From positions 8,700,372 to 8,760,172 of the forward strand of contig JASCQW010000119.1 in NCBI GenBank assembly GCA_030264375.1: a stretch of DNA of 59,801 nucleotides. Direction: 5' to 3'. A program made the translations under genes and the position numbers. This document shows, one piece after another, positions 3,431-56,210 of the stretch. Under the pieces are notes generated by a model that saw only the letters and a list, made by a program, of their open reading frames with translations, was not told where the DNA came from and made no database searches. Numbering within the stretch: the stretch's first letter is position 1; each line of letters begins with the position of its first letter. Origin of the DNA: Carcharhinus longimanus. Taxonomy: Eukaryota.

Positions 3431-3444
3431 TCAGGTTGTCTCTC

Positions 3445-9555: not shown

Positions 9556-9582
9556 AAGAGAAGCTGGACGCGAAATATAAAG
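9556..9582 (+). CDS. Microexon 1 (27 nt, EEKLDAKYK); donor site apparently mutated
   Basis: Strong acceptor ttttgcctttcacag; peptide matches the 27-nt class; followed by atttgc instead of GT. Confidence 0.5.
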
Positions 9583-10379
9583 ATTTGCTTGGGAAGAATT
9601 AGCTAATGAGATAGCCAAATCTCGAATTTATCTTAAGATTTCAATTTTGTCTTTTTTTGAGTATTCCAGCTGAGTACTCTGCGGTGGCATTTAATTATAA
9701 TGTGAACTATATATTAACTATATATTTACTGTAACAGTGTCGCTTTCCGTCCAAGTGATCAGGCTGGAAGCATGTGATGATAATATAGGCTAATACATGG
9801 CTGCACATTGCAGAGGAATTTTCATCATCAGGTTGATATATCTGGAAAGAACCAGTGCATTGGACTGAGTACGATAGGACTGAACACAAAACGATCAGTG
9901 GGCAGTTTCCACGCAAACATATCTCATTCAAAAAGCTCTGCCTCTTTCACTTCTATGGGCGACATACTCATCTATTCATGTCGAAGTTCATTTGTTTTTT
10001 TTTCTCTATTCAGATTATTGTTCAATTCATTTTGATGCAGATATTTGAACTTTTACCATCAGGAAATTCAATGTTTGCAACTCATGTTGTCTCCGTTTGG
10101 AACTAACCCGAAATAGGCACATAGAATGCTGGGGAACTTGAAGTAGGATAGAGGACATTCAGGTCGTAGTTTGCATCGACTCCGCATGTGTGCTGTATTC
10201 TAATCACTGATTGTTGCTGAGCTCCAGTGTTTTGTGCGGGAAGAATAGATCTAAGAAAACAATCACAGATAATTGAAGGAGGGACTTTTGAGGAACAATT
10301 GCTGATGATTTCACTTGAAAGAAAATAAAATGGAAAACTGGGAGAAACATGAGGTTCAGTTTTAGACTATTAAAATTGA

Positions 10380-12205
10380 GTCAAAAAAGGCAAGATAAAC
10401 TTCGAAAGGGAACTATTATAAATATACACATCGACACCAAAAGTTTATTCAGTACGTAAAAAGAAATAGAATAACAAAAGTAAATGTTAGCCCTTGAGCC
10501 CAAAGTACTGGTGCGATGATCATGTGAAGACAGAGATGGTGGATGCACGAAACCAACATTTTCTCTCTATTCACAGGAGAGAATTGTAATTATTCCTCAA
10601 AAATGCCGTTAATGCAGAGGAAACTTCGAGGCAGTAGCTTTGAATAAACGAAGGGTACTAAAGGCAAATTCGTATCTAGGACGACCACCCTACTCTGTTT
10701 AAGGAAGCTTCAGCAGAGATTGTGAACTATTCGTTGGCGAGACATTAAACTTTTCGGATTCTATTATGGCTGCTGTTGATTAGAGTATGTTAAATATGAA
10801 GCCAATATTCAGAAAGGGAGAGACACACATATTTATGAGGAAACCAGTTAGATTGACGCCTTTGGTGGAGGAGTTTCTGAAAGCAATCGTTAAGGATCAG
10901 GTGGCATAGCAGTTCAAAACAGAAAGTGCAATATAACGTTGTTAGAGTGGTTCTATGACGGGAAAGTCATGATTGACAAATGTGTTTCAGTTCCCTACGG
11001 ACAAAACCAGCATGGCAGAGAATGAAGAACATGTGGTTGCCATGCCTCAGAGCCTCAAGAAGCTGTTTGACAGGGTGTTGCAAAGAAGGTCACCCGGAAG
11101 GCGAGGTTGCAGGTGATTTGGTTTAGACTTTTGGATTATATTAAGGATTGGCTCGCTTACAAAAGCAGAGAGTAGGAATAAACGCATCCTTCTCTGGTTG
11201 GCTTATTGTAGTGGGGGAGTAACAGAGGGTTAGTCTTCGCAACTCAACCTTTTACAATGCAAACGAATGATGTGCAAAAAGGGACAAACAGTAAGTTAGT
11301 AAAAATTGCGGATGATACTAAAATTGGGGGAATTCAGATACTGAAAATGGCAAAAGATCAGCTCTGAGAATGGACCAAAATTTACAGAGTGCAATGTGGG
11401 TAAATGTGAGTTCATTTATTTTGACAGAAAAAAAAAACAAAGAGAGACAAATTATTCCGTAAAGCAGAAACGCGTCGGAATACTCCTCGGCAGAGATCTG
11501 ACTGTCTTTGTTCTTGCATAGTAGAAATTCTGTTAGCAGGTACATTTGATAAACAAGGCAAATTGAAAATGGCATTTATTGCAAAAATGACCGGAGTAGA
11601 ATATTTGAGAATATATCTTGCTGCTGTATGGTGTGTTGTTGATACCATAACTTGATCAATATTTTTTTCTTCAAGTTTCAGCCTCCTTATTTGATGAAGG
11701 ATGGAGTGGAATTGGACAAATTACGGAGGAGATTCAAAAAATCCGATCCACATATTAAGGAGTTGACAAACGCGGAGAGATTAAGCAATTTTCGTTGTTT
11801 TTTTTCTCAGTGGAGATTACATGTATGTGCAGGATCTGGCAGAGATATCTACGATTGCAAAAAGTTATTGATAGACTAGATCAAACGTTTCTTCCTATGG
11901 GACAAATAGAACAAGGTTTTGGAGGCATCAGTTGGGAGGCTGTCGATATAAAACGGAGATGAAGAGGAATTACTTTTCACCAAGTGTCATGAATTTCCTG
12001 AACTTGCTGCCATCGAGTGATGAAATCTCAATCGTTACATTGATTCAAGAAGGAAATAAATGCATATCGGTTTTAAAAAATGGGATAATGTAATCGAGGG
12101 TGCAGGTAAGGAGATCATTTCAGACAAGGGAGTGATCAGACATAAAATTGATTGGCTTAGCCGGCCCAAATTGTAAACATGCGTACTTCTGTTCCTTTCG
12201 CCTAC
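10380..12205 (+). mobile_element. Degenerate CR1 LINE, RT to 3' end
   Basis: KLFDRV, SGGVTEG and KIADDTKIGG motifs; CR1-type 3'UTR near 12,100-12,200. Confidence 0.85.
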
Positions 12206-13155
12206 GTTATCATCGGCATTTGCACTGCTAATTTAGTGCTAATTTAGACTCGAAATGCCATATTGTGTTATACTTCTCCAATGTTCCAACAACATTAATT
12301 TTCCCACGCCATACTGTCTTTAGCCTTGTTCCTTTCTCACTTCATCCTTACTCTTCATTTCTCTAGTTTCTACAATCCTTATTTGACCACGTGGTTTTGT
12401 CTTAACTTGTCACTTTCCTTTTTTCTGGATAAATTCCATTTCCAGAGATACATGGGCTGTCCTTGTGATCATTTTCAACAGTTGCCTTCACTTTGAGGGC
12501 TACATTTTTTTTTTGTATGTAAGTATCATCAAACCATCCCTGGCAGCTTCTTATTCGTCATATTAATATTCGTACAATCCGACTATTTATTCAAAAACAA
12601 CCTCAGAGATGAAAAACATATTAGACCGTTGCACGTAGTCTTAAACTTGGCATTGTTCAGTAAGCCTTGGAAATGAAATCTGCATTTTTTTTTCGAATCT
12701 GGCAAATGGTATTATTGTGACGATTCAAGGGATATGTATTGTACTAAAAAGAAACGGTACATAATGACGCAAATGAATCGAATGATATGAATTCGAATAA
12801 AATAGATTAGCTCAATGGGCGTCAAAATAACCTGATGAATGCTGAAATGGAGGTCATTCATATTTGATCAGAAAGCAGAATTTATTTGAACAGTAAAAAA
12901 AAAGTAGCAAGGAATAAACGTAAATCTCAAACATGTCCGCTTATTAGGGTGAAAGATGCTCAGATGAAATGTGCTGATGCAAAAATGGTCTGTTTTACAA
13001 ATATCCCCTTCTAATCTGTTGCTCGTTTTAACAAAGTACAAATGTTTTGGAATTCACTCCAAGTCTATTGTCGGCTCAAATATACACAATAACTTTATCT
13101 TCTCCACGCACCCACCCCCACTCCCCCTCCCCCTCACCTCCATAGTTTCATGCAG

Positions 13156-13191
13156 AGCTGAAGAAATACAATGAATCATTGGAAGTGCCCA
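13156..13191 (+). CDS. Microexon 2 (36 nt, ELKKYNESLEVP)
   Basis: tttcatgcag|...|gtgaga; EL start; Tyr (TAC) at the Cys position; L at position 9. Confidence 0.7.
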
Positions 13192-14149
13192 GTGAGAAAA
13201 AAATGTTTTTCATAAACATTTCATTGTTGTTTCAAAACAATGTGTACCGTCTGACAGTGGCAATAGCAAAATCCCCAGCACATTCTGTAGGTTATGAAAC
13301 ATAAATCTGTTCTTCAAAACTTTTCGAATTTAAGATTAGTATTTGCCCTACAAACGTTTGTATTAATATGAAATGTTTCGGGGTATAGTTTGAATGTTTT
13401 GCTGTATAGTCTTCGGGTACATGGCAATTATGTTCTGGGGAAGCCCTGCTCAAAGTCGTAATGTAAGAGTTGACCAGCATTTTATACAGAAGGTCTGATG
13501 TCCGGTGCACAATGCAAGAGGTGGCGAAATTGGGTTACGTTCTTTACTGAAAATTGATATGGCCGTTTCAATGACAGCACTCTGCGAAATCTGTAAGGGA
13601 AATGTATGTTTCTAACTTCCCAATAACCACTTGAAAGTCCAAGGCTGAGCCCAGCATCAGACACCGCCACAAGTGCATGACTAACAAGAGACATTGCAAA
13701 CCACCTCATCATCGATGAATGCCCGCCCCCAACATCTGTCCAACCCTGAAACATGCTGCCGCCAATCAAAAAATGAGGTTAAGCGCGATCTTGATTATGC
13801 ATCTGTCATGTTCCAAATAAATTTCCGGTCGATAGCTCAGACGGATTCGTCAATGACCTACCACGTCCAACCTACCCGGCAACATAATCACGCAAAACAA
13901 TCCACCATGGAATAAAACATACATTTGCATGCAGACACCCCCTTACTCGGGGGATAGACTCAGTGTGCTTACTTCCGTGATTCAAAACTGCATTAATAAT
14001 GACATAACCTATAGACAACAATGACGGTATGCAGGAAATGGAGAACATACAGGAAACAAACTGATTATTCAGGAAAAGGTATCCCTACCGGTTCACAAGT
14101 TCCAGCATTTGTCCGTGTACTTGGGCTGCGGCTAACACATGTTATGTTT

Positions 14150-15560
14150 ATCTCCTATCAGCACAAGACCAAATGACTCAGAGATAGACCTTTTCGCCCC
14201 GAAATTAGGTTCTAACATTCAGTGCCATAATAGCTGATCAATTATCTCCCATGATCATTTTCAAACGCTTCCCCAGGACTTTTGATTTCTTGACTGATCA
14301 TAAATATATCTCGGTCAGCGTTAAATGTAAAATTCGCCCCAGTTTGGCAATGAATCGTAGACACTCATAATCGTCGAAGAGTAGAAACTCCTCTGAATCA
14401 TATCATTAATTTATCTCCCCTTTAGTCTGAAGCAATGCCATGTGTTCCTTAACTTTGCCACATTCGCCAAGTGGCTGCAGAATTCGATATTTTTGAGTGT
14501 TGTAGTCTTGCAGACTTCTGAGTTCCGATAAGCAGAGTCCTACTTGGTTCACATTTCCTTGAAAAAAAAAATCCTCCATATCAGGGATAATCTCAATATT
14601 TTGTTTTTTATGTATTGTCTCCAATAACAAAAATAAACGCGTTTCCTAATATGCGAGGTGAAAATTGCAACGCACCTCGGAGGAGTTCGCCCTACTATTT
14701 TGTGCAACAATACATTAATTGATTCCAATTTCTCCACTCTTTCTGAAAAAAAACATATTATGAAAAATCTCAGAAAAAGAAATCAGAAAATGAATCGCCT
14801 CTCACGGAACATTGTCTACCATTCTTAGTTTGATTACGTATTTCCACATATCATGTTATTACATCCTTAATAATTGATTCATTGTTTTTCAAACAATAGA
14901 TGTCAGTCTCACTCGTTTATTGTGTCTCACCCCATTTTGATTAGGAGTGCCTTTTTTTTTCAGTTATCCAGTCCTCGGCTAGTAACCCAGAGCGCAAGGA
15001 TATTTTGGAGAATTACAATCAGTGCGTCCAGTTTCTGTGTCCCTATTCTTTATTAAAATTGAGCAATGCAAGCCACAAGATGAGATGAATTATCTATCTT
15101 TAGTCTCATTAGTTTGCTACTTTTCTAATGTCACCAAAGACAATGGATCATACCACAAATCGCTCTCGATCATTCTTGCGAAGTACTTTCATTTCATCTC
15201 TTTATATCGTGTTTAGTCCTCCTTTACTGAATTCTGAAATTGGGATGATCCTTGACCTTAACTTCCTGAAATGCGTACTTTCTCTATCAAATACAATGTC
15301 CTTTTAACTCCTCGGTTATTCACTTTCTTTTTCATTTTCGCGTTTCCAAGAGAAAAATATAATCCTTCTTATTGGACATCATTTTTGCTTTGAGTAACGT
15401 GCTGCATCCATTAATGTCTGCAATGCTTCCTTGTCTTCTTTTCAATTTACCTGTCAGTCCACTTCAGTAAACGAAGCCCTCACATCATCTCTGTGGTCAT
15501 TACTAAATACAATCGTTCCCGACGGAAGATTCATGCCATCACACTGAATAGTAAATGATA
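14150..15560 (-). mobile_element. Highly degenerate CR1 LINE
   Basis: Reverse-complement CR1 3'UTR pattern at 14,170-14,340, followed by eroded ORF2-like sequence. Confidence 0.6.
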
Positions 15561-17429
15561 TCATGGAATCCTTCGTCTAAAACTTTACTGAGATAAACAG
15601 GAGCGTTGCGACTGGAATAATTATCCGGAGATACGGGATAAAGTGTGAGGGATGCAGGATCGAGTATCATCATGGCTGGCGGTGAGATTAATATACATAA
15701 TGGAAATAAATATCTACAAATAACAATGGAGTGATTCTTGATCGTGGGCCATCGATATTTTTCGAGAAAGATAGAAGTTACCTTTACTTGCTCTTGGCAA
15801 TATTCGCTTCAAGTACACAACTGAACGTTTACACATAAATGTTCTCAAATAAAACGTGATGATCCAGCCAGAGATGCTTTCATCCAGAAAATGGATTGAA
15901 TGAAAAAAAAAATCCGGGTGCAAGACCCTCACAGACCATCAACGGAAATCTGGACAACGGATATATATGTCTAGAATATGCAATGAGAATCAACTTTTCA
16001 TTTCTTTTTTCGTTATTACGGTGCACTAACCTTCACACGTGGTTTAAATAAATATTTCCACACGAGACTGAAATCTCAACTCCACGTATATCGCATATTC
16101 AAGATGCATGCAATCTGCATTACTGCAAATTAGTCAAACTTCTGCAAGAAAGATGGACTTGATGGCCGTAAATATGGCAGGTGCTATAGTGCTGTATACT
16201 GAATACTGCAAATAAATGAATCAATCTTTTTTTTTTCACAAATGCGTTTTCATTGTTATCTGTGATGTGGACTCTCACCACAGATCCCTATCTGGTGAGA
16301 CATTGAAAGCTAAGGAAAACGATTATTGTTGTTGCACATATTTAATCTTTAAACAATAAAGGATGCTTCATATTGTTCAGTATTCCTTGGTGTGAAGAAT
16401 TCTTTGACAAGGAGTCTGCAATATCACAAAAACTGGAAGAGTTATCATGGTTAATTGTTTATCCTAGAATGAGACCGATGGCCCGGGACGTGCAGATTTA
16501 ACGTTATTTCTCAAGTTGCACATTAAGGGTCCATAAGCGGCCTTCGAAGACTTTAGTAATGAATGTGATCTAAATCGTGCAGTAGGAGAATTGTTTCATA
16601 ACCGTTTAAATATACCACTCGATGGGATCACGTTTGGTCTTCTTTCATAGACTGAAATAAGTGCTCAGTTCCATAATGTTCCACGTTTTGCAAAACAATA
16701 TCAGTCGACAGAAATAAGAAGAGCTGACTTTGCGTTGCAAATATTTCCTTCCTTCTGGAAACATTTTACATCATTCAATTAATTTCTCAAATGCTAGTGT
16801 TTAGGTTTCGATGACAATATAGGAGCAAAAACAAAATAATGCTTCAGCTTCAGTCAGCAGGTTTTCAGTAGCGCAACGAAGACACCAAAGAACATCATGT
16901 ACATGTTACACTGAGAGTCCGCAGGGCAATGGCGAATTATTGTTTTGCTTGTTCTCCGATATTTCATTTGTTTCAATGAACGGAATACCAATGTGATTCT
17001 ATATTTTGTTGTATTTAATTAGCTCTGAAACAGTTTCTTACTTGCACAATTTGCATCACATTCATATGATTTACTAGTTCGCTTTCTAGACGTAAGTATA
17101 CATTTTGAGGCTCCATTACGTTGCAGCAATGATATCACTAATTGTTTGAGTCTTCAATGCAAACTACTGAAAACATTGCGGTACTAGATGGGAGAACACA
17201 CGAAAATGATTCATGCAGGCATTTGACTAGGTAACATATGTGCAGAAAAAAGCATGGTTCATCTCCAGCACTGATAATTGAGTGGTGATTACTTTGGGCT
17301 GGCAAGGCGTTGCCTTGTTAAGATGTTATTTCAAAGAACATCTGCAAACATGTGGACCGACTGCCCTCGTTCTGCATTCATGGGATCATGTGATTCGATG
17401 AATCTATCTGCACGCTCACAAATAACCAC

Positions 17430-17702
17430 ATGTTCAGATGCGCACAAAACATGCAATACACAAACACACAAATATATTTGCATATAAACCCGGCTATGCA
17501 GAGAGATACAAAGGCATGCGAACACAAGCGAAGATACGTGGAAACACATACACCTTGCAAACAAAAAACAATGAAAGCACATACACAAGCAAACACATAT
17601 ATACACACAGTCGAAGGCACAGACACAAACTTGCACACGGCGGCCGAAACAAATGTATCCACATCTGATGAGAAAAAAAAGATCTGCAAGCACAAAGAAA
17701 CA

Positions 17703-17742
<40 letters not shown>

Positions 17743-17760
17743 CACAGAGGCAGGCACACA
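17430..17760. repeat. (CA)n microsatellite with degenerate CA-rich flank
   Basis: Near-pure CA run at ~17,700-17,740; it explains the THTHT/CVCVC ORFs. Confidence 0.95.
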
Positions 17761-19119
17761 TTCTGAATGAATCAGGAACAGAAGGAAAAAGAAACAGCTC
17801 AATATAATTCATACGTAATTTTCATAGGTATCGGAAGACTGCAACAACACACCTGTGCACATAGAATTGGATAAACACAAACATATTCGCATGGCCACAT
17901 ATCCATGTATAGTTACGTGAAACTCAATCTTCACTGACCTTTTCGCAAAGATAACTAAACGCAGAGTTGATAGCAACTTTGTCTATGCATAATACTTTGT
18001 CTTAGTCTTAATATCTGTTCTGTCAAATATTCCAGATAGCCTGAAGCATGATATCATTGTCACTACAGCACGGCGTAAATACTTCACTACTTTTTGAATG
18101 ATACACCGCTGATTCGCCAGGTGATGAAAAAAAAAACACGCTAGTAACGTTCTATCTCACACAGCGTCCCTATGGAGACATACAGTGATGTGTTGCAGAG
18201 TTCCGCTCAAAGTTTCATAGGGAATGTATTAAAGCCCACTCGTTTAATCACCTCATCCAATTCGATCATACCCCAATTCCGAACATAAGTTCTTCTCCCA
18301 GACTGGAACATATTTCCTCACTCCATGATTGTACCTATACCCAATAGCCAAGTCCACAAAGATCCAAAACTCTACCCCATGGAAATGGGATAGCAATTGA
18401 ATCCCCCTCCTTCTTAATGTGTGCAGAATGTGTGCTGGAGCACGCTCAGAAGCGAATCTCACCCATCGAACATATCAGACAGAACCCTTCCCAGCCACTA
18501 ACTAAAAGGGATGCGTACGATTATCGTAATATACCCCAGCAAATTCTATGGATCAAACTGGAAATTGCCTGCTTGATGGTATTTCAGTTTCACCGAAATA
18601 TTTATGATAAACCACATTTCAACAGCCAGTTTACTACGAAAAAAAGAGCCGCCATTCTAAGTTAGTTGGATTTGCAAGTCACTGCGTCGTTTCGGCAGTA
18701 TTTAGCTGTCGGCTACAAGCGGAGTTTTCAGATTTTATTTTTGGCATATCTGGTAATTGCACTGCAAACTCTTGGAATGCCAATGGACTTTACATTGCAG
18801 AGTGCACCACATCTTCCATCGTCTGACTTCGAGTACGAAGAACCACATATATTCTTCCTGACTGATGAGTGTTCCACTTGCTGACAATATTTTGTTACAA
18901 TAAACGCAGAACGCGTCACTTCAAAAAAAAAAGATAGAGAACTTTTTTTTTATCTGGGTACATTGCAGCATATAGTCCAAAACATACATGGATATAGGTG
19001 GCCTATTTAGCTGAATAGTACTAATATTTGTATCGCATCTGCCGCTATATCGACACTCAAGATTTGCGAAAAATCAAAACAGCATATCTGTTCCATGCAT
19101 ACCATGCATAGTCGTTACC

Positions 19120-19440
19120 CGGGTGACATGGTTACACATGGTTAGCACTGCTGCCTCTCAATACCAGGATCACAAGTTTGGTTACCACCTTGTTTTCTGC
19201 CTGCGTGGATTTTGAACATTATCCTCGTTTCTGCGAGATATTCCTCCGGGTGCACTGGTTTCCCACCAGAGTCCAAAGATGTGTGTGTTCGCTTGATTGG
19301 CACGGCAAATTTTCCCTTATTGTCAACGGGCTCTCAGTGTAAATAATTTGGCTATAGTGATGGGATCTGGGTGGATTTGTGGCTGATGCAGTCTCGAATG
19401 TCTGACTGACGTCCTTCTGCACTGTAGGGGTTCCAAAATT
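19120..19440 (+). mobile_element. HE1-like tRNA-derived V-SINE
   Basis: tggttagcactgctgcctc head, ctccgggtgcactggtttccc..gtccaaagatgtg V domain, and gcagtctcga...tctgcactgtaggg LINE-derived tail. Confidence 0.9.
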
Positions 19441-19760
19441 CCGTTCAATTCAATAGTCATAACTTCTAATGTATTAATATAACGTTTTGTTCACTTACAT
19501 CGTTATTTATATAAGAACTTCAATTTGTTTGCGCTAACTGAAAATAATAAGTCAACCTTGTTAATTAGACATTGTTTGTAAAAAAGGCCATTACACTGTT
19601 TGTATTGTTAAATCAAAACTGGGAACGTGAACAGACTGAGAAGCACACCATGAAGAAATAAATTTTAAAAAGTTTCCTAAAATTTACATATTTATGCGAT
19701 GCAAGAAACCATCCAGCATTACATTGTTTCAATTTGGATGTGTCATTTTTAATCTCACAG

Positions 19761-19787
19761 AAAATAAATTGAAATCGAAAGTCAAAG
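19761..19787 (+). CDS. Microexon 3 (27 nt, K/ENKLKSKVK)
   Basis: ttttaatctcacag|...AAG|gtaagc. Confidence 0.85.
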
Positions 19788-20992: not shown

Positions 20993-21028
20993 AATTATCC
21001 GAATGTGAAGGACGATCAGAAGAATTAG
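20993..21028 (+). CDS. Microexon 4 (36 nt, ELSECEGRSEEL)
   Basis: ttctcattcccag|...TTAG|gttggg. Confidence 0.85.
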   Translation, partial: NYPNVKDDQKN

Positions 21029-21618: not shown

Positions 21619-21645
21619 ACGAAATGTTGAATGCAAAAGTGAAAG
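21619..21645 (+). CDS. Microexon 5 (27 nt, DEMLNAKVK)
   Basis: tttccttccgcaacag|...AAG|gtattt. Confidence 0.85.
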
Positions 21646-22160: not shown

Positions 22161-22169
22161 AGGTGGAAG

Positions 22170-44069: not shown

Positions 44070-46455
44070 AAACAATGTCACGATAGCTTCAGCGCTGGGT
44101 ATTATTACTGACAGCATATCAATATCGCTTGTTGCACGAGCAGGGGTCTCGAGTGCCCCTAAGCAGGCTACCATTACCAGAGACCCCACCATTGGCACTA
44201 GAGTTGAAGAAACGGTGATGACAGAAATGTTATTGGATCACCTCCCGATGGCAGTACACAACATGAGCCGTGCACAAAAAAAGATCCAGTATCAACAAAG
44301 GCAATGTCCCTGCTGCTAATTGACGTAATGGAAAGGCCTGTTCAGAGGCAATTCCTTTTGGAGCAAAACAGCAGTTTACTGCGGAAGACAGGACCTGCTA
44401 TGGGTGCAGGATCATCGGTGCAAGACAGGGTCATCGTGTCATACTGGCTGAATTACACCATGGGCATTCTAGAATCTCCAAAGTGAAGACATTGGCCAGG
44501 AGTTATGTCTGGTGGCCAGATCCCGATGCAGCCGTAGGAGAATTGATGCCAGAAATGTCAACATGGGTACACGGTGCCACCCAGAGCCCCGACGCACCCA
44601 TGGGAATGGCCAGGTAGGCCATGGTCGCCAAACCATGTCGAACCTGCAGGCTGGTTTCGGGGATCCATATTTTGGGTAACAGAAGACGCTCATTCCAAAT
44701 GGTTGAGCATCTAAGGATTATAATCAGCAACACAACCACAACGTTCAGAAACTGACCAATATGACTGCAATGCACGGGTTTCCAGAGGAGTTAGTTTCGT
44801 ACAACGGATCCGTTTGGACCAGCCAGGATTTCACAAAATCATGAAATTGTACGGGAGTCGACAAGTAAGGACAATACCAAAATACCGTTGCTAGCACCGC
44901 AGTCTGTTTTAAGCCTTAACGGTGGCAAATAATTTTGAGTAGGCGTCTTGTGAGTACAACCAATATTTATTTAAACCCACACAATCAATAATCACCCACT
45001 TGATCAACAATAAGTCATCTTACAGAAAATAATAGACTTCAAGTCCAATACAAGTCCTTGAATTAGCTTTGCATGACTGTCAAGTGCCCAAGCAAGTAGT
45101 GGCCTGTATTTGTGCCCTGGACTGGGTAGTCGTCTACGTAGTCTGGACCTTTGATCTGATCTGCCACTTTGGCTGTGGTCTTCCTTCCTTCTTCTCGGAT
45201 GTGGTGGCTCTCAACGTACTGGCCAAAGCTGGCGATGTTCACAAGTGTTGTAGCTCCTTCGTGGGGTCAGAAAGAGAGAGAGGGGGAGAGAGATTCCTGG
45301 TTGAACAGCATCCTTTATACCCCGTTGAGTTTCACGCCCCTTTTTGCCATTGCCAATCAGTTGACCAAGAAGTGATCCTCCTATTGATGCGGGACAAATT
45401 AGGTGCTACCACACCGACCTCTGGTTGTATTGCCAACGGTCATGTCAGTATGCGATAGAGGCACCCATGTCACATACCTCCCTCCTAAATAGGGGTTCAC
45501 GGTGCCCTTATGTCTGGTGTGCAACCCAGTGTGACCATATATTCCGTTCATCCGGGAGATGACCCATATCCTGTTTGTTCACTCGCCAAGGTTGCAGCCT
45601 GTTTGTCTCTGTCTTTACACTGCAGCCTGTAGTTTTACTTCTAGCCCAATTGTCCGATTTACAAATCGCCATTTTAAATGGTCCGTTTGGCCACATTACC
45701 AAGAGTTAAATGACTGAGCGGAGAAAGCAATCCAGGCCCTAAAAGTCGCGCTGAAAAAAAAACTGTCAGTGGCGTCAACAGGAACCAGACTTTCGCGCTG
45801 ACAATTTGACTTTTAGAATATTCTGCACGCCACCACGGTAAAACTACTAGCAGAATTATTCATGCGAAGGTGACCTCGCAAAAGACTGACCCTGCTTGTC
45901 GTTCCAAATGTGGGATGGAAGGTGGAATTCAGACCTAGAAGCCCAATGCGGAGACAATTGGGAGGAAAGAGAGTTTGACATCGGTGAGAAACTCTGGGTG
46001 AGAAATTAGACAAATGTTCCCCGATGGATACCAGGAACGGTTGAGTGCAGAATGGGACCAGGAACGTACCAGGTATGCATGGGCAAGGCCATCCTAAGAA
46101 AACACCTGGACCGGGTCTGTGCCTCAAACTGACCAGACCTTCCCAAGCCGAGTCAGCCGTGCTGTCCTCGGGATGAGAAGATAATTTCTCGAAAGCCAGC
46201 TCGGACTTCCCAATTGAAAACCCCTGGTGGGAAGCTTAGAATCCAAGATAGACACAGAGGACGAAAATGCAGCAGTTCCCTTGCCACCCGAGGGTCGCAA
46301 CAAACCAACCCTTCTGCATTCGCTACAGAAGAGACGGCAAAATGTTACACCCTGCCAAACGCAGGTTGGAGGATGCGGACCTGGCGCTCAAACGGAGGGA
46401 AAGAGCCATAAGGCAATCAAGCCGTTCGAATTCCTCAGACTTTGAGGTGTGGTGA
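44070..46455 (+). mobile_element. Gypsy/Ty3 LTR retrotransposon pol relic (RNase H end, integrase), split by a solo LTR
   Basis: LQRWVLLLTAYQY, LAELHHGHSRISKVKTLARSYVWWP, HPWEWPGRPWS, DAHSKW and HGFPEELVSYNG; after the insertion AEKAIQALK, WIPGTV and RKHLDR. Confidence 0.93.
44886..45695 (-). mobile_element. Solo LTR (~810 bp) inserted antisense into the Gypsy integrase
   Basis: Minus strand TG...CG (CA eroded); flanks atac/ttac (4-bp TSD, one mismatch); CCAAT-type box ~45,352; TATAAA at 45,314-45,319; AATAAA at 44,966-44,971; integrase sequence resumes across it. Confidence 0.85.
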
Positions 46456-46457
46456 GT

Positions 46458-46751
46458 GGAAAGGGGGAGGGGAAATGGTGTTGTTTGATTACTTTAACCA
46501 ATCAATTGGGTTTGGCCTGCTTCAATACGATCTCCCTGATTGAAGGTGTAAACAAAACAAAATAAATCCCAGATTGAAACCGAATTAATGGTCCAAACAG
46601 AGAACCCCATATTCTGTACTTAAACATAAATGTCTATCGCTCTGCCCTCTTGATGTACCCTGCACAATAGAAGCTTTATGGTCTTGTTGGATCTTGAAAA
46701 TAAATAAATTCTGGTGACAGGACTTTCGCCCGAAATGACTTATTAAACACA
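46458..46751 (+). mobile_element. Polypurine tract and 3' LTR of the Gypsy element
   Basis: ggaaagggggaggggaaa followed by TG at 46,476; AATAAA near 46,700; probable ...acaca end. Confidence 0.7.
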
Positions 46752-47875
46752 CGTTTGGGACACGGGAGTAGTGTATTCACAACGTTGAATTAGACTTTTT
46801 TTTCATTTAACATTTCATGGATAACTATTAAATGCAGCAAAGTGGATTTTACAGAGTACATTTCATCGAACCCCTGAAAGGAAACCTTTGTGAAGCATCA
46901 GGGGATGTTGAAGATTTGCACATTTGCATTGAAAAATTGAGTTACAATTCCGACAGACATAAATGCATCGAGACGACCAAAGGTTTGCAGCGCACATCGT
47001 TCCGCCAATTCTAATGCGTGTCTGTTTTGGGACTTTAAAGGGAAAAGGCGTGCCTAATATTCTGCACCAATAACACACCGATATGCTCCATTCCAGCATC
47101 CTCGCTAGCGCATTCGAAAGTGACGTTGTTTCTCTGGCCATCGATACCACGCAGTCTGTGTGCTGGCTTTAGCTGTATTGAAAGTAGCCGATAATTGTTT
47201 TGCACTGACTTCCGAAAACTTGGGCCCAACATAAGTCGGAAAAGTTGACAACCTGTACTAAACTTGCACTGTTTAGAAGTAAACCCCTCAGTGCATATCG
47301 TTTGCTATAGTGCAAAACTCATGCCCAATTAGAACTGCGAGACAATGAATGTCAACATCTTCTTAAGCTAAGAAAAGCAAACCCTCATTTTTCGCTGATG
47401 GACCGAAACACTTCAGAAATAATGTGCAGTTTGTCTCTGAAATGAAATAAAAATCATGGCATTTTACGAACTCTTTCAAAATGATTTGTGTCTGTGGCCC
47501 TGGCTTAGACATCCAAACGCCATCACACAACTGGAGACGTTGCATTTTCAAATTCTAACTTCTCTTATCAAATTGATTGATATTATCAGCAATGCCAAAT
47601 GTCTTTCAAGTTTTGAATAACAGGCAACAGGTTTCACAGATAGGACTAGAGATAATACGTTTCACTTGCTATTTCCTATGGATTCGTTTCAAAATAATCC
47701 ATTTTGCATTCTAGGTGAATTCCCAAGTTGCGCGTACTACCGTAATTAGGTGTTGGTCGTTTCGGCAATTATTATATTCAATGTACTATTCGATATAATC
47801 AGCAACGGCACACATTGTATTGTGCGTTATACCTGCATTAAAATTCCAATTTGATCTTTTTGTAATCTCGTCCAG

Positions 47876-47902
47876 AAAAAGAGCATGGCGAAAACAATAT
47901 AG
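47876..47902 (+). CDS. Microexon 17 (27 nt, K/EKEHGENNI)
   Basis: ttttgtaatctcgtccag|...TAG|gtaaaa; the peptide fits the motif less well than other 27-nt exons. Confidence 0.65.
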   Translation, partial: KKSMAKTI

Positions 47903-48519
47903 GTAAAATCTATCATGTAGACTTACCCGCACTATTTTCATGAATTTTGAGCGCTGAAAATATAATCAAATTAACTATGTTCCTGTCGGGAGTATTATGG
48001 AGTGGAGCAGTCTTAAATTAAAAAGGTATATGTACCATCATCGCACAACAACAACTAATGTCAACGCCCTCAATATATTTTTTTTGACAGTTGAGAGACA
48101 ACAAAGCATAATTTGGTATTTCACACCTGAGCTGAAAAAAAAACATAAGCAGAACCGACTCCTTTCACTGTTACTTTTTTTTATGGTACAGTGTCTATCC
48201 GAAACTAAATAATACATGCAGTATTACAAATCTGTATGATATTTGTGTTGGCACAATTAATTTCAATAGCAAAAAAAAACGTTGCTGCATTTCCATGAGG
48301 ACAACAGTAATAGCACGTCAGATGATTCTGATTTGTTTTAATGCCCGGGGGTCATGACAAGACGAAGGTGATGAGTCGCTTCATGTGTCAAATTTGAAAC
48401 ATGAATCTGGAAGGATTGAAGCGATAAAATCGTTAAATCAATGCTATTCAAATTCATGATTGCAGATCGAAAATAATTGAAATCGTAAAGCATTATCATT
48501 GTCAGGTTTGATGTTTCAG

Positions 48520-48555
48520 AAATAGAACACTTGAAAGCCAAAGTGACATCATTAG
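48520..48555 (+). CDS. Microexon 18 (36 nt, EIEHLKAKVTSL)
   Basis: tttgatgtttcag|...TTAG|gtgagc. Confidence 0.85.
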
Positions 48556-49169
48556 GTGAGCAAAATATTAAAACAGATCTAAAAGTATCGCAGCTGTGCT
48601 TCACTCACATAATACGATACAGCAAAGCATATTTTGTCAGTATGAGGAGAGCATCAAAAAAAAAAAATACTCTATGAAGCGCATCTTCAGTGAACATGGG
48701 ATGTTAAAATAAAGCCATCTTGGTCTAAATGTCATTTTGACTCAGATGTAATTCATGCCGTAAAGACATCTATAACATCGGAGCATGAGTGACAATGCTG
48801 CACAAATGAATTGCGTAGTGTGGGGGAAATTATGTATGGCTGCAATAGCAAATCGGTGTCGTTCCCCTGCGATGTATGCATTTTCGGTCAATAAAACATT
48901 GATGCAGTCAGATCATTTGAGAAACAAATTTATTTTAAATCGGATACATCAATATTGCTGAAATAAGCAATGCATTGCAAATGCATTCTCGGTTGCTGTC
49001 TGAATGTGAACGCCTGTGTCTGGTATGTAGTCTTAGAGTCATATCGGCAGAAAAAAAAAATGAAGAAAAACACGCTTTGGTCCATTGTGTTTGTGACTAA
49101 TACATGTGCGTCTCAAGGTGCAAAAATCCCATTCCGAGGACTTGCCACATATCTTTGAATGATGTCCAA

Positions 49170-49640
49170 ATATTTTAAAATGCCTTTGAGTTTTCTAACC
49201 TCCACTAATTTTGAAGGCCGTGCAATTAGTGTTTGAGAGCCTCTGAATCACTTCTCCGTTACGCTTGATCAATGTCCCCCGCCCTTAGGATTTCTCATTC
49301 AAATACGAAAAACAGCGGCTCCTTGCTCAGCCTGTCCATAACTTACATAACATACACCTCAATCCTGTCCCTTAGAATTCCTTGCGCTAAAGAAAATAAT
49401 CTGAGCCTATCTAGTCTGTTCTTAAAGCTGAATTGCCCAATACAAGCTGACATCATTTGAGCATCCCCTGTACATCCTATCGTGCTACAATATTTTTCTT
49501 ATATAAGCTGAACTGAACTACACAAAGCACTCGAGGGGTTGCATTTCCAATACTCTTTCCACAAGCTCAGCATTACTTGTTCCTCTTGTCCTCTTTTATA
49601 CGAATGATGGAAGTAGTGGCTCATGTGTTTTCTATACTAA
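49170..49640 (-). mobile_element. Degenerate CR1 3' fragment
   Basis: Resembles the better preserved minus-strand CR1 at 50,900-51,300. Confidence 0.65.
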
Positions 49641-50184
49641 CATATTAATTTAATCACTCACTGTGGCAGCAATGTACTCCCGGCGCACATGACCTTTTTG
49701 TTTTCATTTAACAATGAAGCTCATATGTTAATAGTTTACCAACGAGATTGATTGTATGATAATTGTCCCATGCTCTCGCTGTTCCTCTGAGATTCACAGT
49801 GTCCTGCCATTGATTAAACATTTCATTTCTCTCGTTTTCTTCTCCATGAAAGGCATGTTTTTTTTTCTGCTCATAAAAACAAACATTTCTCACTCTATGC
49901 CAATACGTGCGAATTACTTGTTAGGCAGGTAACAGAATTTGCTGTTCCTTCACAGAAAACTTTTCAGCATCAACCTCACTGTCGTGTCTCTGCAGACAGT
50001 TCGCTGAAATATATGAGTTAACCGGAGAATTGTATTACACTTGTTAGTAGTCCAGAAATACTACCTCTACACCATCACCTTTTTATGCTAGATCCTGCAA
50101 GCGAATATAGCAGCATTAATATTAATATACCTAGACTTAGTGGAATCATTGATACCGCTTCTATTACAATATTCTCGAAAGATA

Positions 50185-50510
50185 ATATTACAAAGAACAA
50201 AGAACGACACAGCCCGGGAAACAGGCCCTTTGGCCCAACGAACCCGCGCCGCCATTTTAACATTATGAGTCCCCTCTCCACCAATGACCCTTGTCTATGA
50301 TTATGGCATTCCACATTGTGGGAAGCATTTAGGGGGGATTTGTTACACCAATCAGCCTAACAGCATATCTTTTGAGTGTCGGAGGATATCGGAGCAACCG
50401 TAGAAAACCCACGCAAGCACGGTGAGAATGCGCAAACTCCCGCAGTCACTGGCCCAAATCAATGTATCTGCACAACAAACAGTGATAGTCACTGAGCTGT
50501 CAAGTTGCCC
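50185..50510 (-). mobile_element. V-SINE with CR1-type tail
   Basis: acaaagaacaaagaac...aacaggccctttggccc tail; ggagcaaccgtagaaaacccacgc...gagaatgcgcaaactcc reverse V domain. Confidence 0.8.
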
Positions 50511-50769
50511 AGCATCTGGTCCAGTTTAAACGTAGACTAACGACGTGACGTACTAAGCTACTCTCAAAACAACCAAGAGCAGCCCTCGTACGACCCACTG
50601 CGTGTATGCCCCTTGTTGGACAAGAAGGCGGACCAAAACACCTGTCGATTAAAAGAGAAAAAAAAGAACATCAGTATCATCCACTTCCTTATACACACAT
50701 TCAATGGAGTCCCCCAGTGAAACAAGTGAGCCAGAAAATATGTTGGATGTTCCATACGAATCAATTGAT

Positions 50770-51985
50770 TCCCAGGGACGTCCCAAAGCTCCTGAACCTT
50801 ATTTGAAACAGACTCCTAAATCCCTCCATGTCCATCCCGCTCATGTGTCGACCTAAGTAACTCTAAAACAACTCCAGCGTGCCTGCCTCCACCACCTTGC
50901 GTGGCAGAACATTCCATACCCCCGCTACCCTCTGTGTGAAAACCCTCCCGAATTATACCTCGCCTCCCTCACCCTAAGCCCGTGGCCCCTCGTAATGTGC
51001 GTTTCCAACTTAGGAAAAAAAAACTTACAACTGTTTACTCTATCTATACCCTTCATAATCTTATATACTTCTCTTAGATCTCAACTCAGTCGCCGCCTTT
51101 CAAGGGAAAACAACCCCAATTTGCCCAACCTTTCCTCATAACCCTTCCATACCAGGCAGCATCCTGGTAAACCTCCTCTGCACTCTATCCGGTGTCTCCA
51201 CGTCCGTCCGGCAGTACGGCGACCCGAACTGGACGCAGTACTCCAACTGCGGCCTAACCAACGTTCTATACAACTGCAACGTTAGACTCCAGCTCTTACA
51301 CTCTATGTCCCTTCCTATAAAGACTAACATACCATAGCTTTCTTTGCAATCTTCTCCAGTTGTGCTGCCATCTTACAAGACTTGTGCATTTGCACCCCCA
51401 AGTCACTCTGCATTTCTATGTTCTTAATAGGTCTACACTTTATCATCTAACTCCCCCTACATTATTTCTCCCAAAATGCATCACCTCACATTTATCGTGA
51501 TTAAATAGAATCTGCCATTTATCTGCCCAATATACCAGCCTATCTATATCCCTTTGTATTGCCTGACACTGCTCCTCACTGTCCGCCAATCCAGCCATCT
51601 TAGTGTCACCTGCAAATTTGCTGATCACACCACTTACTCCCTCTTCCAAGTCATTTATGTATATTACAAAGAGAAGAGGTCCCAGCACTGAGCCCTGAGG
51701 CACACCACTATTGACAGACCTCCAGATAGAAAAGGACCTTTCCACTACTACCCTCTGTCTCCTCTTACCAAGCCAGTTATCAAAACATCTATATACCTGA
51801 CTTTATATTCCATGAGCCTTAAGCTTGTCAACCAACATACCATGAGGGACTTTGTCAAACGCCTTACTGAAATCCATATAGACGACATCAACGGCTCGTC
51901 ATTTGTCGACGGTTTTTGTCACCACCTCAAAAAATTCTACCAGATTCGTAAGGCAAGACTTCCCCTTAACAAAGCCGTTGTGGAC
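50770..51985 (-). mobile_element. CR1 LINE RT to 3' end (best preserved copy)
   Basis: SGVPQGSVLGPLLFVIYINDL, KFAGDTK, KCEVMHFG and LYRTLVRPQLEYCVQF motifs. Confidence 0.97.
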
Positions 51986-52434
51986 TTTGACATTATGATG
52001 CGTTATAAGCTATGAAATGCTAAGTCAACGTCTTTGTTTAATTTCGTTTAACATATGTTGATTGCAACACTCGAATAGTCCACTAATAGTTGAATAATGT
52101 TGCATACCATCACAACGCATTCCATTCATAACCATGACAATTAAGTGGACCAACACAACGCAGGTGAGTTTAACAATTGTTAAGACTTTTTTTTCATATT
52201 GATTGTATGTGAAAATAAAGTAAGCAAATGGCATCGATAGATCTCCCAGTATTTTTTTCAAGATAATGGACCGGAAAAATCCGCGGCTGCAATCATTTGT
52301 TGTAACATGGTCGACATTAAAACTGAGGGTTTATTTTTGTTGTTGCATATTTGCATACTGACGTCCAAAGTGAGAGTAGAACATGATGCAATTCCGCCTG
52401 CTTTCACTTGAGATAAGTCTATTCTTAATTTCAG

Positions 52435-52449
52435 ATAAAGTATTGAAGG
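52435..52449 (+). CDS. Microexon 19 (15 nt, DKVLK)
   Basis: tattcttaatttcag|ATAAAGTATTGAAGG|gtaagt; consensus splice sites, 3n, open in phase 1. Confidence 0.65.
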
Positions 52450-54384
52450 GTAAGTTACTTCATGATACGCTGGGTTGAATTAACAACGCTTGACTGAACG
52501 TATTAGGAGTTTCTTTTTTTTCCATTCTGCAAGTAAAAGTATTACTGTTGCCCACAATTAACATTGTTCATGTTGCATTGTTTTTTTTTATCTTAATGTT
52601 GTTAGAGCATGCACTCCTCAAAGACCAAAAAGAAAACTAAATGACTCAAAGCATGGTGTTTATTTTGATTCGAGTGTTTGCATCCCAATATTTTATTCTT
52701 TCCATTAACTGCTCAGACCGTTACGGCTGGGATCTTTTGCAGAGGCCTTTTACACCTGAATTACTCGGGGTTATTTCAATGTTAGCAAAAACAAAAATTG
52801 CATTTCTAAAGGCGGACCTTAAAATTCACTCTCCAAATATCTAATTGTTTAGTTATGTGTAAATGTGTCCTTTATCATTGCAGTGAAAATCCCTCTGGGG
52901 TTTCATAACAATAAAAGAATTAGGAAACCGTCACTATCAATTCACGTTATGATTTCAAGATGCAATACTATCCTGTAATCAATGATAAACATGTTAGTCG
53001 AAGGACATGCTGACATATTGTGTCTTGGGGTTTGTCACATGTGGGTCAACTACGTTGCAAACACATCAAAAAGGAGTAAAGAAAACGCGAATGTGCAGAA
53101 ATTGGGCGTGATATAATGATGTTTTCAGGGCAATTGCAATTTTTTTTTAGGAAAACACTTCTCACTGAAATTGGCAGCATTCTCGAACGATTGGCAATTA
53201 TCTTTCAATAATTGGCGGTGAGGTAATGCAGCATTCCATGTTCTGCAGATAACAAATGTTGCTGAAATATAGTAAGGATTCAGGCCCAGTGACTGTGCAG
53301 AGAGCGCACGTTAAAGCGAATAAGTTGAATGGCATCTTGAAGATCGTGAGCTTGCACAGTTTTCTTTAATGTATTTCGTTTCACATGTACAGTCTCGTCG
53401 TTGAAAAAAAAACGTCAGAACTTTGCAAAACAATTTATGGCATGATTTCCAAGTTCATCGCGTTGGTGAGGAGCCCCACTTCCGCCGACGTGGTTTTCAC
53501 CCTTCGGATTCTCTTGGCGGGTGTTGTGATAAATATAAAGTAACATGCACAATCACAAGAAGTGGCGACGGGCGTCTGAATGGCACCGGACACGTCGAAT
53601 CTTGGCAAATGAACGTATTGGGAGTGGAAAATTACGCCATTTGACTTTAGCTACCTTTTTGTTTGACTTGGTTGTACTGATATACTACTATCAAGCTTTT
53701 CCCACAGATTTTAAATGATCTGTTTTCGGCGCTACACACTTGGGAAAAGCGGCCACCAATTATTCAGTATAGCTTATGTTCTAATTTGCACCTTACGCTC
53801 ATTAGCCAACACCATAACTTATTAGTTGTGTTTGCAGGAAGGAAGGCCATCAATGATTTAACAGTGGATAGCCATGTGAAACTATCCTTGTAAAATCGTG
53901 CACTTGGTGTTATCGTATTTATAACCATCATTTTTACTGTCTGCCTTAACATAACCTGTAACTCTAACATTTGTACTCCACGCTCACATGCGCACCTGCT
54001 TCCAATTCACACTCATCTGAATGACACTTCCACTCAGGTCATGCAAAGTCAAACATTGCACTGACTTCATGGAAAGTCACTCTCACCTCGACCTGACATC
54101 GATCACGTTGTTGCATGTTTGTCAGTTCCCATGGAAGATATTGTCTTCCTGTCTAAAACTTAAAGATTGTCTCTGATGCCAATGCTCATTAGTAAGTGCT
54201 AACCAGAAATGCAAAAAAAAAATCTTCCATAGATTTTCAGTATTCACCTATGGTGCAGCAAAAAAAACAAAGAATTTTTTTTGTTTTGACTGAGGAAAAT
54301 CCGTAAGTTGACGAAAATTCCATGCTGCCTGAAACAAAGTCCACAGTTGCATCTGCTGGAACGAGCTTTTGCAGATCTGTCCCA

Positions 54385-55325
54385 TGGTCAGCTGAGTCAA
54401 GGGACAGCTTTCCGAAAGCTCATGCTATCAAATAAATATTTTGGACGGAAAAATGGGGTTGTGAGAATTACTTCTCTGCCTACACAGTCCAACGCCAATA
54501 CCTCCACAGTCTGGTTTAATNNNNNNNNNNNNNNNNNNNNNNNNNNNNNNNNNNNNNNNNNNNNNNNNNNNNNNNNNNNNNNNNNNNNNNNNNNNNNNNN
54601 NNNNNNNNNNNNNNNNNNNNNNNNNNNNNNNNNNNNNNNNNNNNNNNNNNNNNNNNNNNNNNNNNNNNNNNNNNNNNNNNNNNNNNNNNNNNNNNNNNNN
54701 NNNNNNNNNNNNNNNNNNNNNNNNNNNNNNNNNNNNNNNNNNNNNNNNNNNNNNNNNNNNNNNNNNNNNNNNNNNNNNNNNNNNNNNNNNNNNNNNNNNN
54801 NNNNNNNNNNNNNNNNNNNNNNNNNNNNNNNNNNNNNNNNNNNNNNNNNNNNNNNNNNNNNNNNNNNNNNNNNNNNNNNNNNNNNNNNNNNNNNNNNNNN
54901 NNNNNNNNNNNNNNNNNNNNNNNNNNNNNNNNNNNNNNNNNNNNNNNNNNNNNNNNNNNNNNNNNNNNNNNNNNNNNNNNNNNNNNNNNNNNNNNNNNNN
55001 NNNNNNNNNNNNNNNNNNNNNNNNNNNNNNNNNNNNNNNNNNNNNNNNNNNNNNNNNNNNNNNNNNNNNNNNNNNNNNNNNNNNNNNNNNNNNNNNNNNN
55101 NNNNNNNNNNNNNNNNNNNNNNNNNNNNNNNNNNNNNNNNNNNNNNNNNNNNNNNNNNNNNNNNNNNNNNNNNNNNNNNNNNNNNNNNNNNNNNNNNNNN
55201 NNNNNNNNNNNNNNNNNNNNNNNNNNNNNNNNNNNNNNNNNNNNNNNNNNNNNNNNNNNNNNNNNNNNNNNNNACTTCTCTGCCTACCCAGTCCAACGCC
55301 AATATCTCCACATTATGGTTTAATC
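54385..55325 (+). mobile_element. Penelope-like terminal-repeat fragment(s) flanking an assembly gap
   Basis: ctgagtcaagggacagctttccgaaagct..caaataaatattttggac..cagtccaacgcc; the last ~50 bp recurs after the gap. Confidence 0.55.
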
Positions 55326-56180
55326 TGTTCATTGAATCAGCGTCTAATTCTACACACATCAGTAATGCATTCAGAATGGTGTCAGGTGTTTAATAAGTGT
55401 TCTCTCAACTATTACGATCTAGTGCTTGAAATCAAGTGGAGGAACCTCTAATGATTGTGCCTTTGAATCTTACATTTTGGCACTTCAATTGTCGGGCGCT
55501 TTAGTTCAAGAAAAAAAAGTGTTTTTTTGACAAAAACTGTACGTTTCTGTCTTGTCCTTTGAACTGATTTTTTTTCCCGAAGGTGACCATCCATCGTGGG
55601 TCAGGATGAATATTGAGATGTCACTTATCAACGGTCGCCCCTACGAATACGAAGCCAGCAACTGGGAGTTCCGAATATATCTCAGTTAGATTTCAGTAGC
55701 TTAAGAAAAAAACATGTTTAATTGAGGAGCCTCCTGAATATTAAATACCATTTTCTGAGTTCCAGTGATGCAGCATTACATGAATAAGTCCTAACTTATT
55801 AATCAGTTTAAGAGTTAGAACATAGACATGAATTAAAATTTGCATTAGTGACCGCCGTTCAATGTTTGACTACTCCACAGATGCAACTGAATGTCAAAAA
55901 GCATTGAAAGATTTAGGTGCGTATCCGGCTTTTATGCTTCCACCATATGTTCGTCGAGTTATTGTCGAATTGTGATAATGCAACAGAAATACAAAATGAA
56001 TAATTGTGTTTCTTATCACTCTACTTAATTTATGACAATTGCATTGTTTGCATTGATGCATTATTTCAGAAACAAACAACTCGGATGCAATACCTTTTAA
56101 GTCAAATCCAGAAACCCATAGATTATGGCAAAATATAGTCCTTAATTACAAAATTGTTGGCTTTATTTGTCTCCCCATAG

Positions 56181-56210
56181 CAACACAAATGTATAAAGCA
56201 AAGGAAATGG
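56181..56210 (+). CDS. Microexon 20 (30 nt, ATQMYKAKEM)
   Basis: ctttatttgtctccccatag|...TGG|gtaaat; 3n, open in phase 1. Confidence 0.6.

Follow-up and report, generated by a model that had tools for sequence, protein, structure and literature searches.

A microexon array ending in a B30.2 exon in Carcharhinus longimanus points to an unnamed chondrichthyan family of coiled-coil-B30.2 genes

Introduction

Can a row of exons of only 27 or 36 nucleotides (nt), scattered over tens of kilobases (kb) of shark DNA, be a gene and, if so, how far does it run and what would it encode? The question is raised by a 59,801-nt stretch of Carcharhinus longimanus (the window; assembly GCA_030264375.1, contig JASCQW010000119.1, here C119, positions 8,700,372 to 8,760,172 of the forward strand), in which an earlier note, made from the letters alone, had proposed a hidden gene of about 20 such microexons encoding a 21-residue coiled-coil repeat. 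Here we report that the array is real, yet only a slice of a larger one, which we call gene B and which ends in a B30.2 (PRY-SPRY) exon. On sequence comparison we assign gene B to an unnamed chondrichthyan coiled-coil-B30.2 family, and its product is probably a cytosolic rod. Coordinates outside the window are window-relative (window start = 8700372 of C119), except where a contig or a position in megabases (Mb) is given.

Results

Microexons within the window

On the plus strand, units of the form AG-[27 or 36 nt]-GT/GC with an open phase-1 frame are spread over 19761-55916, as the earlier note had described. Generic splice matrices gave a plus-strand surplus of 27- and 36-nt AG...GT units, and iterated profiles led to two exon classes. 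For the minus-strand and shuffle control that the note had proposed, the window was scored with a combined splice-site and amino-acid model trained on 37 exons outside it (cut-off score 14), which called 16 units of 27 or 36 nt on the plus strand and one on the minus strand, whereas 100 dinucleotide shuffles averaged 0.16 units and never exceeded 2; the training exons had originally been found by profiles seeded on window exons, so that this test is not fully independent. Splice scores alone, applied to the 428-kb gene span, returned 66 plus-strand units, 41 having the 27-nt and 25 the 36-nt length, and no minus-strand unit, with at most seven units for each other length from 12 to 60 nt. None of the 66, up to 40 of which may belong to the training set, contained a stop in the phase-1 frame, compared with 37 and 29 of them in the remaining frames.

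Mean exon-to-exon identity was 0.60 among seven 27-nt exons and 0.51 among seven 36-nt exons, against 0.27-0.31 in 60-nt intron flanks, which confirmed that motifs recur between dissimilar introns; none of the five short families reported by a repeat finder was an intron duplication of the array. Splicing 20 of the 24 window candidates together gives 621 nt of open frame, and all 276 forward junctions possible between the 24 are free of stops. The exact 20-exon, 600-nt set behind the proposed 200 stop-free codons could not be pinned down, three subsets of the 24 fitting. Strict 27/36 alternation, claimed for the whole array, holds for 11 exons (19761-32378), the chain also including a 15-nt (52435) and a 30-nt exon (56181); alternating neighbours among called 27/36 exons amount to 15/18 in the window and 64/92 gene-wide, where 45.5 would be expected (p about 0.0001). 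One exon (29094) uses a GC donor, and the candidates at 11525, 13156, 34916 and 46329 are uncertain.

The first exon of the original list did not survive: the body at 9556-9582 has a good acceptor with AT where the donor is expected, and reading on reaches a stop after six codons. Contigs of run X1, which may be the source sample, carry the same letters here, and the body is probably a dead, skipped exon copy. Over 19001-39000 and 8500-14500 the same run covers introns evenly, its listed joints lying off the exon borders, and is uninformative on expression.

Exon candidates of the window (all on the + strand; positions of the whole stretch):
9556..9582, 27-nt exon body with good acceptor, donor-less (AT); probably a dead, skipped copy
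11525..11539, candidate 15-nt phase-1 exon (18 nt if from 11522), uncertain; model score 19.7
13156..13191, candidate 36-nt exon with weak donor, uncertain; left-out profile score 16.6, model score 10
19761..19787, 27-nt phase-1 microexon NKLKSKVK, start of the strictly alternating core; profile and model
20993..21028, 36-nt phase-1 microexon LSECEGRSEEL; profile and model
21619..21645, 27-nt phase-1 microexon; profile and model
23371..23406, 36-nt phase-1 microexon; profile and model
25507..25533, 27-nt phase-1 microexon, weak acceptor; profile and model
26057..26092, 36-nt phase-1 microexon LNNCQQYLEDL; profile and model
27797..27823, 27-nt phase-1 microexon, weak acceptor; profile and model
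29094..29129, 36-nt phase-1 microexon, GC donor; profile and model
29884..29910, 27-nt phase-1 microexon; profile and model
30612..30647, 36-nt phase-1 microexon; profile and model
32352..32378, 27-nt phase-1 microexon, end of the strictly alternating core; profile and model
34916..34951, doubtful 36-nt candidate closing a LINE-like open reading frame, may be chance; donor score 2.7
36142..36177, 36-nt phase-1 microexon; profile and model
38291..38317, 27-nt phase-1 microexon; profile and model
41258..41284, 27-nt candidate of a different sequence type, moderate support; score 16, has a partner exon in gene A
46329..46364, 36-nt candidate, moderate support; score 15.5
47876..47902, 27-nt phase-1 microexon; score 22
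48520..48555, 36-nt phase-1 microexon IEHLKAKVTSL, 6/11 residues as in an exon of gene A; model and B-A pairing
52435..52449, 15-nt phase-1 microexon (seven such called gene-wide); model
55881..55916, 36-nt phase-1 microexon ATECQKALKDL; profile and model
56181..56210, 30-nt phase-1 candidate exon; score 16.9
1..59801, whole window, inside gene B; microexons from about -102,800 to +314,600

The long open reading frames of the window were rejected as genes, being fragments like long interspersed nuclear elements (LINE), simple repeats or gap-spanning frames. Judged by eye from translations, reverse-transcriptase-like LINE fragments lie in introns at 34433-34933 (+), 51443-51802 (-) and 59347-59673 (+). 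A 51-nt near-duplicate at 54470-54520 and 55274-55324 flanks a gap of 753 N and is probably an unmerged assembly overlap.

Extent of gene B and its terminal B30.2 exon

Across gene B, 102 phase-1 microexons were called between -102.8 kb and +314.6 kb (~420 kb): 53 of 27 nt, 40 of 36 nt, seven of 15 nt and one each of 21 and 30 nt, totalling 3,027 nt at a median spacing of 2.5 kb, with five calls in the minus-strand control. Since the span contains 41,123 N in 64 gaps, this count is probably a lower bound. Every exon length is divisible by three, with phase 1 at either end. The interval first proposed, 9556..56210, takes in roughly one in five of the called exons; the array continues ~100 kb upstream and ~260 kb downstream, and the gene has at least five times the size first seen.

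The array ends in an exon at 317,828-318,348 (+), ~3 kb past the final microexon and matching it in strand and phase, which has a phase-1 acceptor and encodes an intact B30.2 domain followed by a stop. It was found as a long open reading frame, motif scans having missed this divergent domain, which scores 42 bits with Pfam SPRY (cut-off 26.3). Its closest solved structure is BTN3A1 (E 2e-18, residues 2-163), followed by more BTN and TRIM domains, and this end of the array bears out the lead to butyrophilins and BG in the earlier note. The phosphoantigen-pocket histidine of BTN3A1 is not kept in the gene B alignment. The B30.2 domain has 20 invariant columns, none of them cysteine (Cys).

Among the 36-nt exons of gene B, Cys occupies exon position 4 in 13/19 from +19 to +155 kb, against 0/21 elsewhere; the window stretch is an expansion, in gene B, of a Cys-bearing 27+36 unit. 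N-glycosylation sequons number 4, against 4.3 expected. Decayed exon-like bodies, with acceptor or donor lost and one with a stop, were seen at 75367, 88395, 222127, -16831, -32831 and -292395; such copies, like that at 9556, suggest exon birth and death. From -175 kb to +330 kb the observed/expected CpG ratio is 0.65, which appears high for vertebrate introns.

Paralogues and selection

Related B30.2 exons number six on C119 (6.33, 8.53, 9.02, 9.09, 10.68 and 11.29 Mb) and two on C81, and three paralogues on C119 share the layout of gene B, microexons and then a B30.2 exon:
Gene A, + strand: B30.2 exon at -171 kb, microexons extending upstream to 7.76 Mb or further
Gene C, - strand: B30.2 exon at +385 kb, microexons to at least +632 kb
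Gene D, - strand: B30.2 exon at 6.33 Mb, microexons to at least 6.93 Mb

The arrays of genes A and D were only partly sampled. Alignment of gene B with gene A yielded 53 colinear exon pairs with a score of 686, against at most 405 for shuffled exon order. Over 488 codons of these microexons, mismatches were 192/140/247 at codon positions 1/2/3, with nonsynonymous (dN) and synonymous (dS) divergence of 0.47 and 1.19, the pairs having been picked by amino-acid likeness, which lowers dN. In the B30.2 exons dN/dS was 0.42/0.99 for B-A and 0.35/0.89 for B-D, the range among A, B and D being dN 0.31-0.42 and dS 0.89-0.99. By these comparisons A, B and D are old duplicates under moderate purifying selection, which supports the old age and selection proposed in the earlier note (53 colinear B-A pairs, dN/dS ~0.4).

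Relative to A and D, gene B starts mid-array: its exons at -96 kb match A at -514 kb and D at C119:6.724 Mb. Loss of its 5' half in gaps, substitution of a short new start for it, and read-through from gene A are the candidate explanations.

Several further observations concern the surroundings of the cluster. Genes B and C converge, with 67 kb between their B30.2 exons (+318 kb on the plus and +385 kb on the minus strand). Three exons of 27 or 36 nt were called on the plus strand at C119:7320001-7330000, where no family B30.2 exon was found nearby; they would belong either to another family member or to the distal 5' portion of gene A. The upstream array at C119:7.76-7.83 Mb has a different style, with exons ending in A and near-identical 18-nt exons, which suggests recent local amplification. 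C81:85-102 Mb is dense in B30.2, RING, V-set and C2-set_3 exons of TRIM and butyrophilin type and also carries the two family B30.2 members (91.99 and 94.27 Mb); the family may have originated here. On C119 itself, 3-5 Mb from the cluster, the stretch 1.1-3.6 Mb also contains V-set, C2-set_3 and RING exons.

A family with named members in sharks, rays and chimaera

A single-sequence search with the gene B B30.2 domain among longer proteins gave no match, while a profile of eight B30.2 exons from the same genome retrieved proteins of catshark, basking shark, epaulette shark, ray, skate and chimaera, mostly fragmentary models under generic automatic names ('TRIM39-like', 'A33-like', 'nuclear-pore anchor-like', 'golgin A6-like'). 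The expectation that annotation would probably miss the gene is partly borne out: RefSeq relatives exist under generic names, and among ten family proteins tested no model was found for the B30.2 exon of gene B. Family proteins referred to here are:
Catshark: XP_038671249, XP_038668997, XP_038672308
Ray: XP_069775385
Skate: XP_055510696
Chimaera: XP_042192744, XP_042191567

In a B30.2 tree of 37 rows, the 17 family rows formed a 100/100 clade on a branch of 1.01, and the 20 TRIM, BTN, teleost A33-like and other rows, including six labelled BTN, fell outside; deeper relations of this tree were unresolved. The named members of the clade come exclusively from sharks, rays and chimaera. A signature W-x-x-hydrophobic-hydrophobic-W-N occurred in 22/220 proteins, namely the gene B domain, 20 family proteins and one lungfish TRIM. 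The best identity of the gene B domain among ten family proteins tested was 38.5%, with no close orthologue there, while the gene C domain is 76% identical to XP_038668997, which five gene C microexons also match in order. All eight family proteins whose domains were examined contain SPRY, and none contains Ig, RING or B-box. When eight relatives were compared with 1.26 Mb by tblastn, only B30.2 exons were significant among the matches listed.

RefSeq models XP_038671249 (945 residues), XP_042192744 (1697 residues) and XP_038668997 join a K/E-rich coil to a family-type B30.2 domain. Logan contig P0225 has an unbroken 586-codon frame of family-type coil, which we read as a spliced RNA contig, and three RefSeq isoform pairs differ by exactly nine residues. 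Being automatic models, these isoforms would count as indirect evidence of splicing, short of proof. The 945-residue small-spotted-catshark model probably lacks more than 500 residues at its 5' end, because two adjacent cloudy-catshark models overlap different parts of it (P0221, P0224, P0005). In the ESM Atlas there are SPRY-bearing clusters of 1,277-1,802 residues (55, 137 and 79 members; one labelled 'isoform X51') whose taxa are given no more finely than Chordata, and the family may have a bony-fish counterpart. No description of the family was found in openly searchable papers, a body of literature outside which most subscription journals lie.

Predicted coiled coil and mode of action

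Hydrophobic residues in the 11-exon core recur with a period of 3.5 (power 11.7, against at most 2.3 for nine other periods), confirming the three-heptad repeat of 21 residues inferred in the earlier note. In this module the a positions are mostly Leu, the d positions are Lys, Cys and Leu, and the heptad register is continuous across exon borders, a 27+36 pair making three heptads.

We favour, as the probable reading of the sequence, a cytosolic two-chain coiled-coil rod or tether with a C-terminal B30.2 domain, kin to butyrophilin and BG tails. About 100 phase-1 microexons and the B30.2 exon would be spliced into a predicted rod of at least 1,000 residues, and at a coiled-coil rise of 0.15 nm per residue 1,000 residues correspond to about 150 nm. 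Two parallel chains would carry paired B30.2 ligand-binding domains at the C-terminal tip, and the rod may serve as a long spacer or tether that keeps them away from an anchor, by analogy with an extremely stretched butyrophilin or BG cytoplasmic tail. Any exon could be duplicated, skipped or lost without a frameshift; since exons are frame-neutral, the rod would have grown by old tandem exon duplication, would still be turning over and would vary in length between isoforms. Skipping a single 27- or 36-nt exon would break the heptad register, and skipping a pair would keep it.

A cytosolic location is suggested by several features taken together. We found no Ig, C2-set, transmembrane, RING or convincing leader exon, and sequons are at chance level. 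The B30.2 domain has no invariant Cys, and BG cytoplasmic tails carry Cys too (PMC5938342). Finally, butyrophilin B30.2 domains sit on the cytoplasmic side, after the transmembrane region (PMC4046983, PMC8813856).

Between -171 and -95 kb, no convincing signal-peptide or transmembrane exon of gene B was found, and upstream of the gene there was no promoter-like CpG island. A leader-like phase-1 exon at -111,874 was set aside, since such starts occur at chance rate (three on the plus and two on the minus strand of the same 81 kb). A motif scan of 660 kb gave no credible IgV, IgC, C-type lectin, fibrinogen, SRCR, C1q, TNF, RING or B-box exon. The comparison with the lectin CD23/FCER2 was accordingly not supported. 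The suggestion of a surface receptor is unsupported as well: searches around the gene turned up neither Ig or C2-set nor transmembrane exons, although its 5' end was not located.

Several points weigh against the cytosolic rod. The start of the array was reached in none of the four genes, A still running at C119:7.76 Mb, D at 6.93 Mb and C at +632 kb, and the 68 kb ahead of gene B's first exon contain seven 100-N gaps of unknown size. Scoring covered 150/928 V-set candidates, with no hit on C119 5-12 Mb, and 150/312 candidates for the RING profile PF15227, with none on C119 2.6-43 Mb. Gene B exon order, which scored 503 against XP_038671249 compared with at most 434 in 60 exon-order shuffles, beat all shuffles for only 1/5 family proteins, and the window's 21 exons alone did so for 0/5. 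Coil-to-B30.2 splicing is seen in database models of relatives only, the layout of gene B being read from DNA; for another member, the isoform differences in ray are 8, 8, 11, 12 and 23 residues, so that 9/12 is not the sole module; and four RefSeq models start with a hydrophobic stretch. A dN/dS of ~0.4 is moderate only, apart from the lowering of dN by pair choice noted above.

Alternative readings

The best-surviving alternative, which we nevertheless consider unlikely, is a true butyrophilin- or BG-like type I membrane protein, whose Ig and transmembrane exons would lie at the unlocated 5' end, beyond or inside gaps, with the microexons forming a giant cytoplasmic tail. Phase-1 exons suit Ig-family genes, and the best solved B30.2 match is BTN3A1 (E 2e-18). 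In butyrophilins, too, B30.2 follows heptads, and the tail of BG is made from 13-36 small exons (PMC4046983). Against such a protein, C119 5-12 Mb showed no C2-set_3 exon (57/57 candidates scored) and no V-set exon among those scored, Ig motifs were absent from 1.06 Mb, from 0/70 upstream open reading frames and 0/8 family proteins came an Ig match, and the family B30.2 clade is separate from the BTN rows.

A secreted, possibly disulfide-linked rod is very unlikely. It would have a signal-peptide exon, and its d-position Cys, as in the 13/19 exons from +19 to +155 kb, would cross-link chains outside the cell. XP_055510696 and XP_042192744 have hydrophobic N-termini, some relatives carry basic RxKR-type sites, and -111,874 offers one candidate leader-like exon; however, leader-like candidates occur at chance rate, sequons are at chance level, and the last residues of the hydrophobic starts are of the kind encoded by pyrimidine-rich acceptors, which suggests intron read-in.

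Just as improbable, in our view, is that gene B represents an incomplete copy, silent or in decay, with expression limited to its paralogues. Its mid-array start relative to A and D, several dead exon copies and the lack of a promoter-like CpG island upstream agree with decay. At dS near 1 from A and D, however, its B30.2 frame is intact, 0/66 units have in-frame stops and dN/dS is about 0.4; a long-dead copy would look otherwise, and only recent loss fits.

Least probable is a protein of TRIM type, in which the unlocated 5' end would supply RING and B-box exons and the coiled coil would have expanded. In its favour are TRIM21, TRIM58 and TRIM7 among the B30.2 matches, the two family B30.2 exons within the TRIM/BTN-rich stretch of C81 and relatives auto-named TRIM39-like or A33-like. 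Against it stand the absence of RING and B-box motifs in 1.06 Mb, their absence from all eight family proteins (0/8 with either) and the lack of a PF15227 match on C119 2.6-43 Mb among the 150/312 candidates scored.

Discussion

If expressed as modelled, gene B would be among the most exon-rich microexon genes known to us in vertebrates. Its family has been recorded by gene finders only as mislabelled fragments, and immune inventories of sharks, rays and chimaera consequently miss a B30.2 clade. The family combines the long many-exon tail of chicken BG with the B30.2 domain of butyrophilins and thus bears on the origin of such tails; it is also relevant to the function of BG tails, which is an open question, PMC8813856 asking whether orphan B30.2 domains act on them. 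The locus moreover offers a natural test system for the recognition of 27-36-nt exons across 2.5-kb introns a hundred times in succession and, as a frame-neutral array, for exon birth and death.

A more speculative extension of the cytosolic rod, to which we give little credence at present, is that these giant rod-B30.2 genes constitute a splice-programmable molecular ruler, and that A and B are maybe one transcription unit of more than 1.2 Mb with two alternative B30.2 tips. In such an ancient family, common to sharks, rays and chimaeras and occupying 0.4-0.8 Mb per gene, 100-200 frame-neutral microexons would set the distance from the anchor to the B30.2 sensor. A single A+B unit is suggested because B is without the 5' half of its paralogues and begins 68 kb behind the B30.2 exon of A, whose strand and phase it shares.

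Comparison with known systems

None of BTN, BG, TRIM and CD23 accounts for gene B, each having defining features that gene B lacks or that were not found here. TRIM and BTN genes may have a 27-nt exon ahead of the B30.2 exon. Butyrophilins (BTN3A1, BTN2A1; PDB 4n7i) are alike in having heptads and then a C-terminal B30.2 domain (PMC4046983, PMC8813856), but they have a few heptads where gene B has about 140, their Ig and transmembrane exons were not found here, and the family B30.2 clade excludes the BTN rows. In CD23/FCER2 a C-type lectin follows the stalk, whereas the terminal exon of gene B is B30.2.

The chicken BG tail, as described in PMC4046983 and PMC5938342, is built from many small exons with a split first codon and heptads running across exon borders, and it shows tail Cys, alternative splicing and gene-cluster expansion. 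BG and the soluble 'zipper protein' thus resemble the gene B family in a long coiled-coil tail from many small exons. BG differs in its 21-nt exons (some 18 or 24), 13-38 per gene, placed behind IgV and transmembrane exons and without B30.2, whereas the family has exons of 27, 36 and 15 nt, at least 100 of them in each gene and spread across 400-800 kb, with a B30.2 end; the BG-type 21-nt length accounts for 1/102 called gene B exons, and 27 or 36 nt for 93/102.

TRIM-B30.2 proteins (TRIM21, TRIM39, TRIM69 and the RING-less 'A33-like' proteins of fish) share a coiled coil and a terminal B30.2 exon, but RING and B-box were not found here, the coil of gene B is many times longer, and the teleost A33-like and TRIM rows lie outside the clade. 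Guinea-pig enterophilins share this domain plan, being cytosolic and combining an extended leucine zipper with B30.2, without RING or Ig; the likeness does not imply relationship.

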